Source: a virus (taxonomy: Duplodnaviria > Heunggongvirae > Uroviricota > Caudoviricetes). Taken from it: 9,746 nt of DNA. The notes beneath the pieces were generated by a model. It searched no databases, was not told where the DNA came from, and saw only the letters and a program-made list of their open reading frames with translations. The stretch lies in the IMG/VR virus record IMGVR_UViG_2609459860_000011. One strand, given 5' to 3'. The position numbers were made by a program, and so were the translations under genes. This document shows, piece after piece, positions 1 to 8,843 of the stretch (positions are counted from its first letter, which is position 1; every line of letters starts with the position of its first letter).

Positions 1-411
1 TCTGCAGATTTTAACTCATGGGAATATGTGCCAGACCATCGCGGTGAAATCATCTATAGCACCGAAACAGGAGAATCGAAAGAAATCACAGCTCCGGGTG
101 ATTATCCTGAAAATACAACCACTATCGCCCCGTTAACGCCATACGATAAATGGGATGGTGAGAAATGGGTGACCGATACTGAGGCACAGCATAGCGCCGC
201 AGTAGGCGCGGCAGAAGCACAGCGTCAGTCACTGATTGATACTGCAATGGCTTCCATTAGTCTGATTCAACTGAAATTGCAGGCCGGGCGGAAGCTGATG
301 CAGACAGAAAACACCCGACTTAACGCTGTGCTGGATTATATTGACGCGGTGACGGCAACAGATACCAGCACAGCGCCGGACGTCATCTGGCCTGAACTGC
401 CGGAGGCGTAG
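1..411 (+). CDS. Tail fibre assembly protein (Tfa, P2 gpG-like), 5'-truncated by the window edge; copy in the currently expressed orientation
   Basis: Frame 1 is open from base 1 (no stop) to TAA at 409-411; the ORF track's GTG at 28 is internal. The C-terminus ...NAVLDYIDAVTATDTSTAPDVIWPELPEA carries the Tfa-family motif (LDYxDAx...APD-x-W-P-x-x-P) and is paralogous to the C-terminus of the minus-strand ORF 383..826. The two genes overlap convergently at their 3' ends (383-411), as in Mu G, P1 C and e14 P segments. Confidence 0.75.
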   Translation, partial: SADFNSWEYVPDHRGEIIYSTETGESKEITAPGDYPENTTTIAPLTPYDKWDGEKWVTDTEAQHSAAVGAAEAQRQSLIDTAMASISLIQLKLQAGRKLMQTENTRLNAVLDYIDAVTATDTSTAPDVIWPELPEA

Positions 412-826
412 GCCATTCAATATCTGGAGCGCTGGAGATATCAACCAGTTCCAGTGCGTCCAGATAATCCAGCCATAAATTATATTGTTCCAGCTCGTCA
501 CCTTTCAGACGACCAATAGCAGCTTTGCCAGGCCACTGATGGGTATTGATGTAGGTATTGACTTCTGAAACCAAAGATATTTTTTTCATTTCAGCCGCCA
601 GCACCTCATCCTCTTTTGAAGGCGGTGGGGAATTAATCCATACTGGTCGTCCTGAACTGTCAGCGCCAATTTCTTTCCCTTCTGGATGCAGCCCAAGAAA
701 TTGCTCATATGTTTCTCTGGTAATTTCAATAACATCATCAGGAAGCGTTCCCGCATCCTCATATTCTGGAAACAATTCTTGCAGATAAAAACTTTTACTT
801 CCGGGTGAAAAGAATACTGAGTTCAT
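383..826 (-). CDS. Tail fibre assembly protein, alternate copy (Tfa') in the currently silent orientation
   Basis: 147-aa ORF, ATG at 826-824 (minus). C-terminus ...NLWLDYLDALELVDISSAPDIEWPTPPAVQAR is the same motif as the plus-strand tfa. It starts 2 nt after the stop (831-829) of the upstream minus-strand fibre cassette, i.e. a fibre-Cterm/tfa pair. Confidence 0.75.
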   Translation of the reverse strand: MNSVFFSPGSKSFYLQELFPEYEDAGTLPDDVIEITRETYEQFLGLHPEGKEIGADSSGRPVWINSPPPSKEDEVLAAEMKKISLVSEVNTYINTHQWPGKAAIGRLKGDELEQYNLWLDYLDALELVDISSAPDIEWPTPPAVQAR

Positions 827-828
827 TC

Positions 829-1323
829 TTACCGTCCAATGATTAACGCTGAGACGCTGGTATCTGAAGGAAAGGCTGCATTCAGTGGTTTGTCGACTTT
901 GAACACAATCGTATTATTCCCCCTGACAGCGGCAAAAGAACAAACCGCCGTCGCGTATGAACCTGTAATATTACTGGATACACCACCATAAGCTGTTGTT
1001 GATACCAGAGGGATAACGCCCAGCACCTTATTAGGAAATACAAAGGGCAATGTGGCTGTGGCAATATAAGACTTATTAGAACCTGTAATGGCATAAGCAT
1101 TATCAGTCATTCCATTCATCGCCACTGGACCGCTTATACTTACAGTAACCATCTGAATGATTAGCCCGTCAGGTTGACGAATCACAAAATTTCCATTGCC
1201 ACCAGTAACCGTCCAGAAAGACATATCAGGGATTTGGTTTTCCCCGTTGCCCACATTTCGTTTTGCCGCTTCTCCCAAACCAACGTTTATGAAAATGCAG
1301 AGATAACGGCTAACTGGCATCAT
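829..1323 (-). CDS. Alternate tail-fibre C-terminal (receptor-binding) cassette; probably promoterless and expressed only as a fusion to the constant fibre N-terminus after inversion
   Basis: Minus-strand ORF whose 5' end contains the crossover site (1270-1295, encoding ...IFINVGLGEA...). Gly/Ser/Thr/Val/Asn-rich composition typical of fibre tips. Directly followed by tfa'. The ATG at 1323 may be fortuitous. Confidence 0.6.
   Translation of the reverse strand: MMPVSRYLCIFINVGLGEAAKRNVGNGENQIPDMSFWTVTGGNGNFVIRQPDGLIIQMVTVSISGPVAMNGMTDNAYAITGSNKSYIATATLPFVFPNKVLGVIPLVSTTAYGGVSSNITGSYATAVCSFAAVRGNNTIVFKVDKPLNAAFPSDTSVSALIIGR
1270..1295. other. hix/gix/pix-type crossover site for the serine invertase (right boundary of the invertible segment)
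   Basis: TTCTCCCAAACC-AA-CGTTTATGAAAA: two imperfect 12-bp inverted half-sites around a central AA, matching the remembered hixL TTCTTGAAAACC-AA-GGTTTTTGATAA at most positions. It lies 55 bp upstream of the invertase start and inside the 5' end of the silent fibre cassette. Confidence 0.6.
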
Positions 1324-1350
1324 CTCCGGTTTTTATTCAGGGGATCCATC

Positions 1351-1944
1351 ATGCTTATTGGCTATGTCCGCGTATCAACAAATGACCAGAACACGGAATT
1401 GCAGCGTAACGCGCTGGAATGCGCGGGATGTGAGCGGATTTTTGAGGACAAAATCAGCGGCACGAAGTCCGACAGGCCGGGACTGAAAAAACTGCTCAGG
1501 ACATTATCGGATGGGGATACACTGGTAGTCTGGAAGCTGGACCGGCTGGGGCGTAGTATGCGGCATCTGGTCATTCTAGTTGAGGAACTGCGCGAACGTG
1601 GCATTAATTTTCGCAGCCTGACGGATGCTATTGATACCAGCACGCCGATGGGGCGTTTTTTCTTTCATGTGATGGGTGCCCTGGCTGAAATGGAGCGAGA
1701 ACTCATTGTCGAGCGGACACGCGCCGGACTGGAAGCGGCCAGAGCCAAAGGTCGTATTGGTGGCAGACGTCCGAAACTCACCGCGAGTGAGTGGGAGCAG
1801 GTCGGACGGTTGCTGGCTGCGGGGGAATCTCGTCAACGCGTGGCGCTGATTTTTGATATTGGCCTGTCCACGCTCTATAAAAAATTCCCCTCATCAGCGA
1901 CAAAGAATAAATTGTGTCATCCCTTAGCCAACCGGGACAAATAG
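1351..1944 (+). CDS. Serine DNA invertase, Gin/Pin/Hin/Cin family
   Basis: Starts MLIGYVRVSTNDQNTELQRNAL... (catalytic Ser in RVSTNDQ); conserved ...DTLVVWKLDRLGRSM...GRFFFHVMGALAEMERELIVERT... and C-terminal HTH ...ALIFDIGLSTLYKKF. Close to my memory of Mu Gin and e14 Pin. RBS AGGGGA at 1339-1344. The ORF-track start at 1174 is an upstream in-frame extension running antisense through the fibre cassette; the real start is the ATG at 1351. Confidence 0.9.
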   Translation: MLIGYVRVSTNDQNTELQRNALECAGCERIFEDKISGTKSDRPGLKKLLRTLSDGDTLVVWKLDRLGRSMRHLVILVEELRERGINFRSLTDAIDTSTPMGRFFFHVMGALAEMERELIVERTRAGLEAARAKGRIGGRRPKLTASEWEQVGRLLAAGESRQRVALIFDIGLSTLYKKFPSSATKNKLCHPLANRDK

Positions 1945-2003
1945 CCTGACATCTCCGGCACAACTGAAAATACCACTCACCCATTAACCACGGAGTTAAA
2001 CGG
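1900..2003 (+). promoter_or_regulatory. Probable Ogr-dependent late promoter region (PF-like) for the FI-FII-E-T-U-D operon, overlapping the invertase 3' end
   Basis: Only 59 bp separate the invertase stop (1942-1944) from the FI ATG (2004), so the late promoter and activator site (expected near -55 in P2 late promoters) must overlap the invertase 3' coding end. A partial dyad TGTGTCA...GGGACA is present at 1913-1939, but I could not find an exact TGT-N12-ACA element. Confidence 0.3.
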
Positions 2004-3194
2004 ATGAGTGACTATCATCACGGCGTGCAGGTGCTGGAGATTAACGACGGCACCCGCGTCATTTCCACCGTATCCACGGCCATTGTCGGCATGGTCTGCA
2101 CGGCCAGCGATGCGGATGCGGAAACCTTCCCCCTCAATAAACCGGTGCTGATTACCAATGTGCAGAGCGCAATTGCAAAGGCCGGTAAAAAAGGCACGCT
2201 GGCGGCGTCGTTACAGGCCATCGCTGACCAGTCAAAACCGGTCACCGTTGTTGTGCGCGTGGAAGACGGCACCGGCGACGACGAGGAAACGAAACTTGCG
2301 CAGACCGTTTCCAATATCATCGGCACCACCGACGAAAACGGTCAGTACACCGGACTGAAAGCCCTGCTGGCGGCGGAGTCGGTAACCGGTGTTAAACCGC
2401 GCATTCTCGGTGTGCCGGGACTGGACACCAAAGAGGTGGCTGTTGCACTGGCATCAGTCTGTCAGAAGCTGCGCGCTTTCGGGTATATCAGCGCATGGGG
2501 CTGTAAGACCATTTCCGAGGTGAAAGCCTACCGCCAGAATTTCAGCCAGCGTGAACTGATGGTTATCTGGCCGGATTTCCTCGCATGGGATACGGTCACC
2601 AGTACCACCGCCACCGCGTATGCCACCGCCCGTGCGCTGGGTCTGCGCGCTAAAATCGACCAGGAGCAGGGCTGGCATAAAACGCTGTCCAACGTCGGGG
2701 TAAACGGTGTTACCGGCATCAGCGCGTCCGTATTCTGGGATTTGCAGGAGTCCGGCACCGATGCTGACCTGCTTAACGAGTCTGGCGTCACTACGCTGAT
2801 TCGCCGCGACGGTTTCCGCTTCTGGGGTAACCGTACCTGCTCTGATGACCCGCTGTTCCTCTTTGAAAACTACACCCGCACCGCGCAGGTGCTGGCCGAC
2901 ACGATGGCTGAGGCGCACATGTGGGCGGTGGACAAGCCCATCACCGCAACGCTGATTCGCGACATCATTGACGGCATCAATGCCAAATTCCGTGAGCTGA
3001 AAACAAACGGCTATATCGTGGATGGCTCATGCTGGTTCAGCGAAGAATCCAACGATGCGGAAACCCTCAAGGCCGGAAAACTGTATATTGACTACGACTA
3101 TACCCCGGTGCCTCCTCTTGAAAACCTGACCCTGCGCCAGCGTATTACCGATAAATACCTGGCAAATCTGGTCACCTCGGTTAACAGCAATTAA
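2004..3194 (+). CDS. FI: Contractile tail sheath protein (P2 gpFI)
   Basis: 396 aa, the same length as P2 FI; sequence MSDYHHGVQVLEINDGTRVI... recognised as P2-type sheath. RBS GGAG 8 nt upstream. Confidence 0.9.
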   Translation: MSDYHHGVQVLEINDGTRVISTVSTAIVGMVCTASDADAETFPLNKPVLITNVQSAIAKAGKKGTLAASLQAIADQSKPVTVVVRVEDGTGDDEETKLAQTVSNIIGTTDENGQYTGLKALLAAESVTGVKPRILGVPGLDTKEVAVALASVCQKLRAFGYISAWGCKTISEVKAYRQNFSQRELMVIWPDFLAWDTVTSTTATAYATARALGLRAKIDQEQGWHKTLSNVGVNGVTGISASVFWDLQESGTDADLLNESGVTTLIRRDGFRFWGNRTCSDDPLFLFENYTRTAQVLADTMAEAHMWAVDKPITATLIRDIIDGINAKFRELKTNGYIVDGSCWFSEESNDAETLKAGKLYIDYDYTPVPPLENLTLRQRITDKYLANLVTSVNSN

Positions 3195-3206
3195 GGAGCC
3201 TGACCG

Positions 3207-3725
3207 ATGGCAATGCCGCGCAAACTCAAGTTAATGAACGTCTTTCTGAACGGCTACAGCTATCAGGGCGTCGCGAAGTCCGTCACGCTGCCAAAACTGA
3301 CCCGTAAGCTCGAAAACTATCGCGGTGCGGGAATGAACGGCAGCGCACCGGTAGACCTCGGCCTTGATGACGATGCGCTGTCAATGGAGTGGTCGCTCGG
3401 GGGCTTCCCGGATTCGGTTATCTGGGAGCTTTACGCCGCAACCAGTGTGGATGCTGTGCCGATTCGTTTTGCAGGCTCTTACCAGCGCGACGATACCGGC
3501 GAAACGGTGGCCGTCGAGGTGGTCATGCGTGGACGTCAGAAAGAAATCGACACCGGCGAGGGCAAACAGGGAGAAGACACCGAGTCGAAAATCTCCGTGG
3601 TCTGCACCTATTTCCGGCTGACGATGGACGGTAAGGAGCTGGTCGAAATCGACACCATCAACATGATTGAGAAGGTGAACGGCGTCGACCGGCTGGAGCA
3701 ACACCGCCGCAATATCGGCCTGTGA
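3207..3725 (+). CDS. FII: Tail tube protein (P2 gpFII)
   Basis: 172 aa, MAMPRKLKLMNVFLNGYSYQGVAKSVTLPKL...; RBS AAGGAG at 3193-3198; position immediately after the sheath gene as in P2. Confidence 0.9.
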   Translation: MAMPRKLKLMNVFLNGYSYQGVAKSVTLPKLTRKLENYRGAGMNGSAPVDLGLDDDALSMEWSLGGFPDSVIWELYAATSVDAVPIRFAGSYQRDDTGETVAVEVVMRGRQKEIDTGEGKQGEDTESKISVVCTYFRLTMDGKELVEIDTINMIEKVNGVDRLEQHRRNIGL

Positions 3726-3733
3726 TTTTCATC

Positions 3734-3754
3734 CGGTCAGCCTGGCTGACCGGT
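3734..3754 (+). other. Perfect 9-bp stem / 3-nt loop hairpin in the FII-E intergenic region (possible attenuator or mRNA processing/stability element)
   Basis: CCGGTCAGC-CTG-GCTGACCGG, 9 nt after the FII stop; no following T-run, so not a classical intrinsic terminator. Confidence 0.35.
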
Positions 3755-3781
3755 TAACCCCGATTCAGAAGTGAGAAAACC

Positions 3782-4057
3782 ATGAACAAAGAAAATGTGA
3801 TTACCCTGGACAATCCGGTCAAGCGTGGTGAGCAGGTTATCGAACAGGTCACGCTGATGAAACCCAATGCCGGGACGCTGCGCGGTGTCAGTCTGGCTGC
3901 GGTCGCGAACTCTGAAGTCGATGCACTGATTAAGGTGCTGCCGCGCATGACGGCACCGATGCTGACCGAGCAGGAAGTCGCCGCGCTGGAACTGCCTGAC
4001 CTTGTGGCGCTGGCCGGTAAGGTGGTCGGTTTTTTGTCGCCGAACTCGGTGCAGTGA
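3782..4057 (+). CDS. E: Tail assembly chaperone gpE (zero-frame product)
   Basis: 91 aa, MNKENVITLDNPVKRGEQVIEQVTLMKPNAG..., ending ...KVVGFLSPNSVQ. Confidence 0.85.
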   Translation: MNKENVITLDNPVKRGEQVIEQVTLMKPNAGTLRGVSLAAVANSEVDALIKVLPRMTAPMLTEQEVAALELPDLVALAGKVVGFLSPNSVQ

Positions 4058-4209
4058 CGTTTCCGAAAAATCTCTCGGTCGATGACCTGATGGCAGATGT
4101 GGCAGTGATATTTCACTGGCCGCCATCAGAACTGTATCCCATGAGCCTGACCGAACTCATCACATGGCGCGAAAAGGCGCTCCGGCGAAGCGGAAACACG
4201 AATGAGTAA
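3782..4209 (+). CDS. E+E': gpE+E' extended chaperone made by programmed -1 ribosomal frameshift (analogue of lambda G/GT)
   Basis: Slippery heptamer T-TTT-TTG at 4030-4036 in the E frame (GGT TTT TTG). The -1 frame is open from 4036 to TAA at 4207-4209 and encodes ...VAELGAVTFPKNLSVDDLMADVAVIFHWPPSELYPMSLTELITWREKALRRSGNTNE. The stop overlaps the T start codon (ATG 4202-4204). Total about 142 aa, as for P2 E+E'. Confidence 0.7.
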
Positions 4210-6649
4210 CAATGTAAAATTACAGGTATTGCTCAGGGCTGTTGACCAGGCATCCCGCCCGTTTAAATCCATCCGTACAGCGAGCAAGTCGCTGTCGGGG
4301 GATATCCGGGAAACACAAAAATCACTGCGCGAGCTGAACGGTCAGGCGTCCCGTATTGAGGGATTTCGCAAGACCAGTGCGCAGCTCGCCGTGACTGGTC
4401 ATGCACTTGAAAAGGCTCGGCAGGAAGCCGAAGCCCTTGCCACACAGTTTAAAAACACCGAACGTCCGACCCGTGCTCAGGCGAAAGTGCTGGAATCCGC
4501 AAAGCGTGCGGCGGAGGACTTACAGGCGAAATATAACCGCCTGACGGATTCCGTTAAACGCCAGCAGCGGGAACTGGCCGCTGTGGGAATTAATACCCGC
4601 AATCTTGCACATGATGAGCAGGGGCTGAAAAACCGTATCAGTGAAACCACCGCACAGCTTAACCGTCAGCGCGACGCACTGGCGCGTGTCAGTGCACAAC
4701 AGGCAAAACTTAACGCAGTCAAACAGCATTATCAGGCCGGAAAGGAACTGGCAGGAAATATGGCCTCAGTGGGCGCTGCCGGTGTGGGGATTGCTGCTGC
4801 GGGAACGATGGCCGGTGTTAAGCTGCTGATGCCCGGTTATGAGTTTGCGCAGAAAAACTCAGAATTGCAGGCTGTGCTCGGTGTGGCAAAAGACTCCGCC
4901 GAAATGGCCGCATTACGCAAACAGGCGCGCCAGCTCGGCGACAATACCGCCGCCTCGGCGGATGATGCGGCCGGTGCACAGATAATCATCGCGAAAGCGG
5001 GTGGGGATGTTGATGCCATTCAGGCGGCAACGCCGGTCACGCTGAATATGGCGCTGGCGAACCGCCGCACGATGGAAGAAAACGCCGCCCTGCTGATGGG
5101 GATGAAATCCGCCTTTCAGCTTTCAAACGATAAGGTCGCTCATATCGGGGATGTTCTCTCCATGACGATGAACAAAACCGCCGCCGATTTTGACGGCATG
5201 AGCGATGCGCTGACCTATGCCGCACCTGTGGCAAAAAATGCCGGTGTCAGCATTGAAGAAACCGCCGCAATGGTCGGGGCGCTGCATGATGCAAAAATTA
5301 CAGGCTCAATGGCGGGGACGGGAAGCCGTGCCGTGTTAAGTCGCCTGCAGGCACCAACGGGAAAAGCATGGGATGCACTCAAAGAGCTTGGCGTGAAAAC
5401 CTCAGACAGCAAGGGAAACACCCGGCCAATATTTACCATTCTGAAAGAAATGCAGGCCAGTTTTGAGAAAAACCGGCTCGGTACTGCCCAGCAGGCTGAA
5501 TACATGAAAACTATTTTCGGGGAGGAGGCCAGCTCAGCCGCCGCCGTGCTGATGACTGCCGCCTCAACCGGAAAGCTGGACAAACTGACCGCTGCGTTTA
5601 AAGCCTCAGACGGGAAGACTGCCGAGCTGGTAAATATCATGCAGGACAACCTCGGCGGTGACTTTAAGGAGTTTCAGTCCGCTTATGAGGCGGTGGGGAC
5701 TGACCTGTTTGACCAGCAGGAAGGCGCACTGCGTAAGCTCACGCAGACGGCCACAAAGTATGTGTTAAAACTCGACGGCTGGATACAGAAAAACAAATCA
5801 CTGGCGTCAACCATTGGTCTCATTGCCGGTGGCGCACTGGCGCTTACTGGCATCATCGGTGCCATTGGCCTCGTAGCCTGGCCGGTTATCACCGGCATCA
5901 ATGCCATCATCGCGGCAGCAGGCGCAATGGGGGCAATCTTCACGACGGTTGGCAGTGCCGTTATGACGGCCATCGGGGCGATTAGCTGGCCGGTTGTGGC
6001 CGTGGTGGCCGCCATTGTCGCCGGGGCGTTGCTTATCCGTAAATACTGGGAGCCTGTCAGCGCATTCTTTGGCGGTGTGGTGGAAGGGCTGAAAGCGGCA
6101 TTTGCGCCGGTGGGGGAACTGTTCACGCCACTTAAGCCGGTGTTTGACTGGCTGGGTGAAAAGTTACAGGCCGTGTGGCAGTGGTTTAAAAACCTGATTG
6201 CCCCGGTCAAAGCCACACAGGACACCCTGAACCGTTGCCGTGACACGGGCGTCATGTTCGGGCAGGCACTGGCTGACGCGTTAATGCTGCCGCTTAATGC
6301 GTTCAACAAACTGCGCAGCGGTATTGACTGGGTACTGGAAAAACTCGGTGTTATCAACAAAGAGTCAGACACACTTGACCAGACCGCCGCAAGGACTAAT
6401 GCCGTCACGTATGGCACCGGTGGTTATATTCCGGCGACCAGCTCTTATGCAGGCTATCAGGCTTATCAGCCGGTCACGGCACCGGCTGGTCGCTCTTATG
6501 TGGACCAGAGTAAAAACGAATATCACATCAGCCTGACGGGCGGTACTGCGCCAGGGACACAGCTCGACCGCCAGTTACAGGATGCACTCGAAAAATACGA
6601 GCGGGATAAACGTGCGCGCGCCCGTGCCAGCATGATGCATGACGGTTAA
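4202..6649 (+). CDS. T: Tail tape measure protein (P2 gpT)
   Basis: 815 aa, the same length as P2 T. N-terminal coiled-coil-like Gln/Ala/Arg/Leu-rich region and a central Gly/Ala/Ile-rich hydrophobic stretch typical of tape measure proteins. Start is translationally coupled to the E' end. Confidence 0.9.
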   Translation: MSNNVKLQVLLRAVDQASRPFKSIRTASKSLSGDIRETQKSLRELNGQASRIEGFRKTSAQLAVTGHALEKARQEAEALATQFKNTERPTRAQAKVLESAKRAAEDLQAKYNRLTDSVKRQQRELAAVGINTRNLAHDEQGLKNRISETTAQLNRQRDALARVSAQQAKLNAVKQHYQAGKELAGNMASVGAAGVGIAAAGTMAGVKLLMPGYEFAQKNSELQAVLGVAKDSAEMAALRKQARQLGDNTAASADDAAGAQIIIAKAGGDVDAIQAATPVTLNMALANRRTMEENAALLMGMKSAFQLSNDKVAHIGDVLSMTMNKTAADFDGMSDALTYAAPVAKNAGVSIEETAAMVGALHDAKITGSMAGTGSRAVLSRLQAPTGKAWDALKELGVKTSDSKGNTRPIFTILKEMQASFEKNRLGTAQQAEYMKTIFGEEASSAAAVLMTAASTGKLDKLTAAFKASDGKTAELVNIMQDNLGGDFKEFQSAYEAVGTDLFDQQEGALRKLTQTATKYVLKLDGWIQKNKSLASTIGLIAGGALALTGIIGAIGLVAWPVITGINAIIAAAGAMGAIFTTVGSAVMTAIGAISWPVVAVVAAIVAGALLIRKYWEPVSAFFGGVVEGLKAAFAPVGELFTPLKPVFDWLGEKLQAVWQWFKNLIAPVKATQDTLNRCRDTGVMFGQALADALMLPLNAFNKLRSGIDWVLEKLGVINKESDTLDQTAARTNAVTYGTGGYIPATSSYAGYQAYQPVTAPAGRSYVDQSKNEYHISLTGGTAPGTQLDRQLQDALEKYERDKRARARASMMHDG

Positions 6650-8387: not shown

Positions 8388-8606
8388 ATGTTTCATTGTC
8401 CTTTATGCCAGCATGCCGCACATGCGCGTACAAGTCGCTATATCACTGACACGACAAAAGAGCGTTATCACCAGTGTCAGAACGTGAATTGCAGCGCCAC
8501 GTTCATCACTTATGAGTCGGTACAGCGATACATCGTGAAGCCGGGAGAAGTCCACGCAGTAAGGCCGCACCCGTTGCCGTCAGGGCAGCAAATTATGTGG
8601 ATGTGA
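8388..8606 (+). CDS. ogr: Ogr zinc-finger late-gene transcriptional activator (Ogr/Delta family)
   Basis: 72 aa, MFHCPLCQHAAHARTSRYITDTTKERYHQCQNVNCSATFITYESVQRYIVKPGEVHAVRPHPLPSGQQIMWM; Cys4 motif CPLC...CQNVNC. RBS GGAAGAGG at 8372-8379. The ORF-track start at 8325 is an in-frame upstream extension with no RBS. Confidence 0.85.
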   Translation: MFHCPLCQHAAHARTSRYITDTTKERYHQCQNVNCSATFITYESVQRYIVKPGEVHAVRPHPLPSGQQIMWM

Positions 8607-8617
8607 TCACAAAAATA

Positions 8618-8645
8618 GCCCCTCAGTTGAGGGGCTTTATTTATG
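8618..8645 (+). terminator. Rho-independent terminator after ogr
   Basis: AGCCCCTC-AGTT-GAGGGGCT (8-bp GC-rich stem, 4-nt loop) followed by TTATTTAT. Confidence 0.6.
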
Positions 8646-8650
8646 GTCGA

Positions 8651-8669
8651 TGTGGACGCTATGTGGACA
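8651..8669 (+). other. Direct repeats ATGTGGAC x2 (a third, ATGTGGAT, at 8595-8602): candidate integrase arm-type binding sites of the prophage att arm
   Basis: gATGTGGACgctATGTGGACAg between the ogr terminator and the host-side terminator. I recall, without certainty, that P2 Int arm sites resemble TGTGGACA. An IHF-like site TATCATCAGGTTA (8693-8705) lies just downstream. Confidence 0.3.
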
Positions 8670-8734
8670 GTGGTTTATATAAATCCATTTATATCATCAG
8701 GTTAGGTGATTTTTTGTGACACCATCCCTGTCTT

Positions 8735-8762
8735 CCCCCACATGATGTGGGGGTTTTTTTTT
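8735..8762 (+). terminator. Strong rho-independent terminator; possibly the duplicated 3' end/terminator of the upstream host locus (cpxP/CpxQ) forming the att core
   Basis: CCCCCAC-ATGAT-GTGGGGG followed by a run of 9 T (8754-8762). It sits 81 bp upstream of fieF. Confidence 0.65.
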
Positions 8763-8843
8763 ATCCTCAATTTGCCTGCTGCTTAATGCATTGCAGATGA
8801 TTTGCTTCCGTTATACTAGCGTCAGTTGATAGCGGGAGTATTT

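Follow-up and report, generated by a model that had tools for sequence, protein, structure and literature searches.

The pixR-type crossover site of a tail-fibre switch in a P2-like Escherichia coli prophage

The locus and its question

The window analysed here, the whole stretch of 9,746 nucleotides of IMG/VR record IMGVR_UViG_2609459860_000011, corresponds to bases 2..9747 of contig JNPN01000049.1 in assembly GCA_000703625.1. Near its left end, an open frame on the minus strand (829..1323, MMPVSRYLCIFINVGLGEAAKRN...) contains a 26-bp stretch that a first-pass annotation, made from the letters alone, had taken for a crossover site of a DNA invertase embedded in the coding sequence of a silent fibre cassette. 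Tail-fibre switching by Din-family invertases has been textbook knowledge since the 1980s. The question raised by this locus is whether the stretch is one site of such a switch, where its partner lies, and how much of the site has to serve both as recombinase recognition sequence and as codons. We conclude that 1270..1295 is almost certainly the invertase-proximal site of a two-site Din-family (Hin/Gin/Cin/Pin) tail-fibre switch in a P2-like E. coli prophage located beside fieF.

Gene layout and host element

The features on which the analysis rests are as follows.

1270..1295 (unstranded): right-hand 26-bp crossover site, TTCTCCCAAACC AA CGTTTATGAAAA, identical to pixR and unique in the window
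1282..1283 (unstranded): central dinucleotide AA (TT on the minus strand), the presumed point of staggered cleavage and exchange
1270..1281 (minus strand): inner half-site, within the invertible segment, encoding G-L-G-E (GGT TTG GGA GAA) of whichever cassette is expressed
1284..1295 (unstranded): outer half-site CGTTTATGAAAA, outside the invertible segment, read as a non-coding flank that never joins the fibre gene
829..1283 (minus strand): alternative C-terminal part of the fibre, a silent cassette of about 150 codons that runs from GLGE to a stop codon at 829..831
383..826 (minus strand): tail-fibre-assembly (chaperone) gene that belongs with the silent cassette (Pfam Caudo_TAP, E = 7.6e-28)
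1..411 (plus strand): 3' portion of the other tail-fibre-assembly gene, the one that goes with the cassette expressed at present (Caudo_TAP, E = 2.3e-31), cut by the contig start
1..1283 (unstranded): right-hand two-thirds of the invertible segment, which measures 1947 nt from core to core in a homologous prophage (L001)
1351..1944 (plus strand): serine DNA invertase of 197 amino acids (Pfam Resolvase, E = 1.8e-52; HTH_7, E = 5e-13) with Ser9 as the nucleophile
1369..1440 (unstranded): putative recombinational enhancer near the start of the invertase coding sequence; Fis-like G-N13-C motifs lie at 1372..1386 and 1421..1435

Downstream of the invertase, the genes for sheath FI, tube FII, E/E', the tape measure, U, D and ogr follow one another, after which the host gene fieF begins. 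According to the open reading frames and Pfam, the late genes are arranged in the order of a P2-like (Peduovirus-type) prophage: H, G, FI, FII, E/E+E', T, U, D and ogr. Peduovirus records matched the DNA at 94%, and the fieF stretch was 99.7% identical to that of E. coli. The silent cassette had a weak match to Pfam Gp53-like_C (24.1 bits, just under the cut-off of 24.9), and a search of NCBIfam with the invertase, cassette, chaperone and fused fibre yielded no family above its cut-off. A complete version of the truncated assembly gene, encoding 200 amino acids, is present on contig JNPN01000060.1 (contig 60, L012), a second contig of the same assembly (L012 7053..7655). The two convergent tail-fibre-assembly genes share 29 bp at their 3' ends (383..411), and the same overlap is annotated in the e14 prophage of K-12 (tfaP/tfaE) and in L001.

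Two further observations concern the remainder of the element. A TTTTTTG run at 4030..4036, near the end of the gpE-like frame (3782..4057) and before an overlapping frame of 51 amino acids (4054..4209), resembles the known programmed frameshift site in E/E+E', the tail-assembly chaperone of P2. Directly after the ogr-like gene there is a strong hairpin with 21-nt arms and a 2-nt loop, followed by a short gap and then fieF (8605..8648 and 8650..8825); this region probably marks the right end of the prophage, with the attachment site adjoining fieF.

Identity of the 26-bp site

On the plus strand, 1270..1295 reads TTCTCCCAAACCAACGTTTATGAAAA and occurs only once in the window. No match to it was found in 200 shuffles, even with three mismatches permitted. 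To assess chance independently of the Pin system, we left pixL and pixR out and derived a weight matrix from the hix, gix, cix, mix and bix sites in the literature. On this pix-free matrix, position 1270 scored 29.3 bits, the highest value in the window, whereas the next unrelated position in the window reached 6.1 and the highest score among 200 shuffled windows was 18.0; the match is far better than chance would produce. The 26-mer has the architecture of a Din-family site, namely two 12-bp half-sites with imperfect symmetry (8 of 12 positions) flanking a 2-bp core, and in that family cleavage at the two core bases is established (PMC3241671). It is identical at all 26 bases to pixR as printed in Table 3 of PMC3241671, and is also base-for-base the site beside pinE in the e14 prophage of K-12 (L008 5606..5631). 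Judged by its sequence, the 26-mer is therefore an element known before: it is a pixR site belonging to a Pin-like tail-fibre switch, which in this case resides in a P2-like prophage. The alignment to the hix/gix/cix/pix family that the first-pass annotation had proposed thus yielded not only a family resemblance but identity to one member, and its placement of the 26-mer in the 5' end of the minus-strand cassette also agrees with the sequence, since the minus strand of the site lies within the open frame 829..1323 and reads (I)FINVGLGE.

A variant of the site differing at one base, TTCTCCTAAACC, was found in three metagenome and read-archive contigs (L009 9920..9945, L010 5836..5861 and L013 1198..1223) that encode an invertase protein identical to that of the window and in which a third, different cassette adjoins the site. 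The change lies in the inner half and is synonymous for leucine (TTG to TTA), which fits a coding constraint on that half. It follows that the two inner half-sites of that element are not identical.

The invertase and its enhancer

The crossover site lies 55 bp upstream of the invertase gene. The encoded protein has the two parts expected of a serine recombinase, a resolvase domain with the serine nucleophile and a C-terminal helix-turn-helix, and it aligned with PinE of e14 at 86% identity, with Cin of P1 at 78% and with Gin of Mu at 77%. The gene is intact; Ser9 is retained, and 114 columns are invariant across the alignment of this protein with PinE, Gin and Cin. At the C-terminus, the protein carries a tail (…KKFPSSATKNKLCHPLANRDK, window 1890..1944) that is longer than, and unrelated to, the tails of PinE, Gin and Cin (compared in L008, L006 and L007), and DNA homology with pinE stops near base 1781.

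Within the 5' end of the invertase gene, 58 of the 72 bases of 1369..1440 match the annotated enhancer of the P1 record, which occupies the corresponding position in cin. The two Fis-like motifs are 49 bp apart from start to start, and the region lies approximately 96 bp from the crossover site, measured between centres. For comparison, the Hin enhancer spans 65 bp, has Fis sites at both ends and is situated approximately 100 bp from hixL (PMC3798978). We infer that 1369..1440 is probably the recombinational enhancer of this element and that Fis would bind to it.

No sigma-70-like promoter was predicted in 1150..2050, either for the invertase or in the leftward direction. An arrangement in which the outer half-site doubles as recognition site and invertase promoter was accordingly dropped, as none was predicted in that interval. 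Between the crossover site and the start codon of the invertase there is a terminator-like hairpin on the plus strand (1312..1331) followed by TTTTTATT, with the T-run extending to about 1338. This hairpin might shield the invertase gene from late read-through transcription across the segment.

The partner site and the reading frame

An invertible segment requires a second site, which the first-pass annotation had expected in an upstream fibre gene. Neither a mismatch search nor an inverted-repeat search detected a partner in the window, because the contig starts inside a tail-fibre-assembly gene, so that both the partner and gene H are absent from it. The expected partner was found within H in two complete loci: on contig 60 (L012 6169..6194) and in L001, a 97%-identical E. 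coli prophage, at 4325..4350 within H (3511..4809). The expectation was thus borne out as regards the gene, although the site itself lies outside the window, and the link between the two sites consequently rests on a second contig of the same assembly together with homologues. In L001, the longest inverted repeat of the region pairs the right-hand site with 4325..4350, and a matrix scan of the complete L012 and L001 loci recovered exactly two sites above background.

The partner reads TTCTCGCATACC-TT-GGTTTGGGAGAA, and all of it is coding. In both L012 and L001, it stands in inverted orientation relative to the right-hand site and has the same core dinucleotide: the core is TT on the top strand at the partner and AA in the window, and these match after inversion of the site. 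When the left and right sites are read in the same sense, they share 15 identical bases, TTGGTTTGGGAGAAG, which comprise the core, the inner half-site and one more base. In contrast, the outer halves are unlike, with TTCTCGCATACC on the left vs TTTTCATAAACG on the right.

Both sites begin at codon position 2, and the central TT occupies positions 2 and 3 of a codon, a leucine codon (CTT) in H and a valine codon (GTT) in the silent copy; GGT TTG GGA GAA, encoding G-L-G-E, follows in each. Because the two sites share this codon phase, the frame is kept across the core in both orientations, as the first-pass annotation had predicted. When the constant portion of H was fused at the core to the cassette of the window, an open gene of 426 codons resulted (...GKDVAGLLAYLGLGEAAKRNVGNGENQ...), and exactly such an intact gene, with the window cassette expressed as the C-terminus of a 426-aa H protein, is present in L003 and L012. 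The predicted fusion of the constant fibre N-terminus to the cassette in frame was therefore found in nature, and the open fusion in L001 encodes 432 amino acids. The same phase, codon phase 1, was observed in all eight sites examined (those of this element, gixL and gixR of Mu, cixL and cixR of P1, and pixL and pixR of e14), and the inner half encodes G-L-(Q/R/G)-E in this element, Mu, P1 and e14. A single codon phase at the junction of the constant and variable parts, together with a chaperone gene for each cassette, is the arrangement of a fibre-cassette switch.

Both orientations in natural genomes

We constructed the inverted form of L001 3900..6700 in silico and compared it with complete E. 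coli genomes. The inverted locus aligned with NZ_CM135961 as a single piece, with 99.9% identity over all 2801 nt. Among the complete E. coli genomes, 24 had the inverted and 46 the native arrangement at a coverage of at least 80%. Two sister soil isolates, MEI1A-0323 and MEI2O1-23 (NZ_CM149601/NZ_CM149574, loci L004/L005), differ in the same way: their flanks are 100% identical (1950 nt and 2551 nt), and between the flanks lies an exact reverse complement of 1905 nt, with the breakpoints in TTGGTTTGGGAGAAG. The invertase of these isolates is annotated as a pseudogene, frameshifted and with an internal stop; another Pin-like enzyme may have acted in trans to invert the segment there, or the pseudogene annotation may reflect an assembly error. 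Both loci also contain approximately 600 extra bp between the right site and the invertase, with an orphan frame of 105 amino acids (4009..4326) that is possibly a remnant of a third cassette. The observations on these two loci concern locus coordinates 1951..3855 and 3856..5150.

The source assembly itself contains the other arrangement. In the span compared on contig 60 (L012 6181..8929), window 1..1283 is present as the reverse complement of L012 6181..7463 at 100% identity, fused in frame to the constant part of H, and window 1269..2046 is present unchanged beside the other cassette (778 nt, 100% identical). The sole mismatch reported by BLAST in contig 60 is base 1284, the first base of the outer half-site, and because this first difference falls at 1284, the exchanged DNA ends at the central AA. 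Sequence comparison places the exchange within 1269..1283. In sibling assemblies, the window-type cassette abuts the invertase in L016 and the other type in L017 and L018. The 24 and 46 genomes, the sister isolates and the source assembly all present the segment in both orientations, with the breakpoints in the sites.

In GCA_000703625.1, the two orientations of the segment occupy two contigs, and the window's contig starts abruptly inside the tail-fibre-assembly gene. This pattern is probably the assembly signature of a culture that was mixed for the switch. It could also be produced by two P2-like prophages fixed in opposite orientations, a possible, if somewhat doubtful, explanation that concerns this one line of evidence only. 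Contig 60 and the L014 contig of an independent assembly end 4 nt apart, at window positions 2046 and 2050 at the start of the sheath gene, which has the look of a repeat boundary, and contig 60 carries an extra gene of 251 amino acids that is not seen in L009. However, the 1283 nt and 778 nt shared by the two contigs are 100% identical, and an assembler would normally collapse such copies, whereas the overlaps are approximately of the size expected from path extension through a mixed junction. Goldberg et al. (2014) measured inversion at e14 and at two P2-like loci of enteropathogenic E. coli (EPEC), where it produced alternative C-termini of one fibre protein (PMC4272514).

Could the inversions have arisen by general, RecA-dependent homologous recombination at short inverted repeats instead of by site-specific exchange? 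The breakpoints can be placed only within the 15 nt that the sites share, so that comparison of sequences by itself cannot separate the two mechanisms. An identity of 15 nt is below the usual minimum for efficient RecA recombination, which counts against this explanation, as does the fact that each repeat is exactly a Din-family site and that a dedicated invertase lies 55 bp away. Mu, P1 and e14, in which inversion is established to be site-specific, moreover have this architecture and this codon phase as well, and we regard the RecA route as extremely unlikely.

The same data bear on whether the switch is still in use in this prophage. A decayed or orphan pix site beside a permanently silent cassette, with inversion having ceased, would fit the single site in the window and the lack of a predicted invertase promoter in 1150..2050, and invertase genes of prophages are often degraded, as in the truncated or pseudogene copies of L002, L004 and L005. 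Such a relic is nevertheless highly improbable because the site is perfect (26 of 26 bases of the functional pixR), the enzyme is intact (full-length, with Ser9) and the source assembly holds both orientations, with the segment DNA 100% identical; both orientations are also common among genomes. A multi-site system of the shufflon or Min type was rejected, as there are exactly two sites in L012 and L001 and the recombinase is of the serine type. The preferred reading is hence a two-site switch acted on by a Din-family invertase.

The outer half-site and the silent frame

The open frame 829..1323 extends beyond the cassette by 13 residues, MMPVSRYLCIFIN, and this prefix precedes whichever cassette is silent: on contig 60, it stands before the other cassette (L012 7655..8206), where the silent frame reads MMPVSRYLCIFINVGLGEGSALPV... 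As the same prefix is found on either silent cassette, the fixed flank on the invertase side includes 1284..1295 as well as the G of the Val codon, and the outer half 1284..1295 is not exchanged in the inversion. The expressed fibre contains ...AYLGLGE... and never ...FINVGLGE... On these junctions, 1270..1283 (xTT GGT TTG GGA GAA) is the only part of this copy that ever becomes fibre-coding. The first-pass annotation had placed the entire 26-mer under a double constraint of recognition and coding. This holds for 1270..1283 and for the whole of the partner, but not for 1284..1295, where the 'IFIN' codons and the G of the Val codon are fixed flank; given that the outer half is tied to the flank, coding and recognition jointly constrain half of this copy and all of the partner copy. 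One half of the recombinase site is thus locked to coding, with G-L-x-E in every system compared, whereas the other half varies with the flank in which it lies.

The frame 829..1323 could instead be regarded as an independent gene, with the 26-mer encoding part of its N-terminus and the whole site constrained by coding. It is open from ATG codons at 1323 and 1320 with a GGAG just upstream, and RefSeq calls a CDS here in both L001 and L004. However, the 13-residue prefix goes with the fixed flank and not with the cassette, no leftward promoter was predicted, and in other genomes the cassette is the C-terminus of a full fibre protein. The GGAG is only 0–3 nt from the ATG codons, a spacing too close for a normal ribosome-binding site. 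We consider an independent gene very improbable, and the RefSeq 'hypothetical protein' at 829..1323 is best read as the silent cassette plus 13 codons of non-coding flank.

A related proposal is that the outer half-site and the GGAG-ATG-ATG (1296..1327) form a constant translation start from which the silent cassette would yield small amounts of a free polypeptide of approximately 160 amino acids with the leader MMPVSRYLCIFINV. The frame of the silent cassette is open in both orientations. We hold this to be a very slim prospect; if it were true, the fibre-tip fragment of approximately 160 amino acids could serve as a decoy, block receptors or mediate superinfection exclusion.

Proposed mechanism and its significance

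Onto the sites, frame, intact invertase, natural orientations and breakpoints observed here, the reaction known from the family can be mapped, from which the cleavage chemistry, the dependence on Fis and the enhancer, and the effect on host range are taken. Dimers of the invertase would bind this site and the inverted partner in H, approximately 1.9 kb upstream, and the two dimers, each on its site, would come together at the enhancer, occupied by Fis, near the start of the invertase gene. By analogy with the family, all four strands would be cut at the central dinucleotides through phosphoserine links, one pair of half-sites with its subunit pair would rotate by 180 degrees, and the ends would be religated. 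For Hin and Gin, the 2-nt staggered cleavage, the phosphoserine intermediate and subunit rotation are established (PMC3798978). The flipped segment would consist of two convergent pairs, each made up of a C-terminal fibre cassette and its assembly chaperone, and the constant N-terminus of H (...AGLLAY-L) would be joined in frame to G-L-G-E and either cassette. The expected outcome is two fibre tips and presumably, as in other members of the family, two host ranges.

As a discovery, the site carries little weight, as the exact 26-mer has already been published and measurements of inversion already exist for P2-like E. coli prophages. Its value lies in annotation: at this locus, the switch leaves its signature in assemblies as contig breaks and contig duplications, and for the fibre genes of such prophages both orientations should be reported in host-range prediction.

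Comparison with known systems

The closest system is Pin/pix of e14 in K-12. The right site is identical to pixR at 26 of 26 bases, the invertase is 86% identical to PinE, and the layout is the same, in the order fibre N-terminus, cassette and tfa, tfa' and cassette', site, and invertase. Codon phase is shared as well, the inner half encodes G-L-G-E in both, and the tfaE-type gene is 91% identical, although inverted in the K-12 reference. According to the citation in PMC4272514, the invertible P segment of e14 was described by Plasterk and van de Putte in 1985. The differences lie in the surroundings: e14 is lambdoid, whereas the element here is a P2-like myovirus prophage beside fieF; the silent cassette, at 551..1268, has no counterpart in K-12; and the invertase here has a longer, different C-terminal tail. 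The outer half of the left site is CTCTCGAAAACC in e14 and TTCTCGCATACC here, because the site lies in a different constant fibre region (LLAYL here vs ALENL in e14). Homology to e14 resumes at base 1269, the inner edge of the site, and the stretches matched by phages pro483 and S164 begin at 1269 and 1262, respectively. Since homology begins at 1262..1269 with an unrelated cassette to the left, the site is also a mosaic boundary, and the module of chaperone, site and invertase seems to have been exchanged between lambdoid (e14) and P2-like prophages.

The G-segment of Mu (Gin/gix) and the C-segment of P1 (Cin/cix) share the serine invertase (77–78% identical to that of the window), 26-bp sites with 12-bp halves and a 2-bp core that lie, in the same codon phase, where the constant part of the fibre meets the variable part, and a segment containing two convergent pairs of fibre and chaperone genes. 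The enhancer there lies in the 5' end of the invertase gene, as does the putative one here. In Mu, however, the core is TC/GA, compared with TT/AA here and in P1, and the two sites are fully identical. In P1, unlike here, cin is transcribed toward the segment and cixL overlaps the 3' end of cin. Both segments are larger, at 3 kb in Mu and 4.2 kb in P1. The Hin/hix flagellar phase switch of Salmonella involves the same recombinase subfamily and 26-bp sites with an AA core (PMC3241671), and its Fis-dependent enhancer lies approximately 100 bp from one site (PMC3798978), compared with approximately 96 bp for the putative enhancer here. Because Hin flips a promoter rather than coding cassettes, the hix sites are free of a fibre-coding constraint.

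Among P2-like elements, the prophages of EPEC E2348/69 resemble the present one, by description, in having an invertase, inverted repeats and alternative fibre C-termini, and both orientations coexist in cultures (PMC4272514). Three repeats and four variants are present at one of the two EPEC loci, whereas there are exactly two sites here. In the Min system of p15B and the R64 shufflon (Rci), inversion likewise swaps C-terminal cassettes of a surface-recognition protein. The R64 shufflon is driven by a tyrosine recombinase at unrelated repeats, whereas the recombinase here is a serine invertase. Min has six sites as against two here, and the mix sites have the same inner half, TTCCCC(C/T)AAACC AA (PMC3241671).
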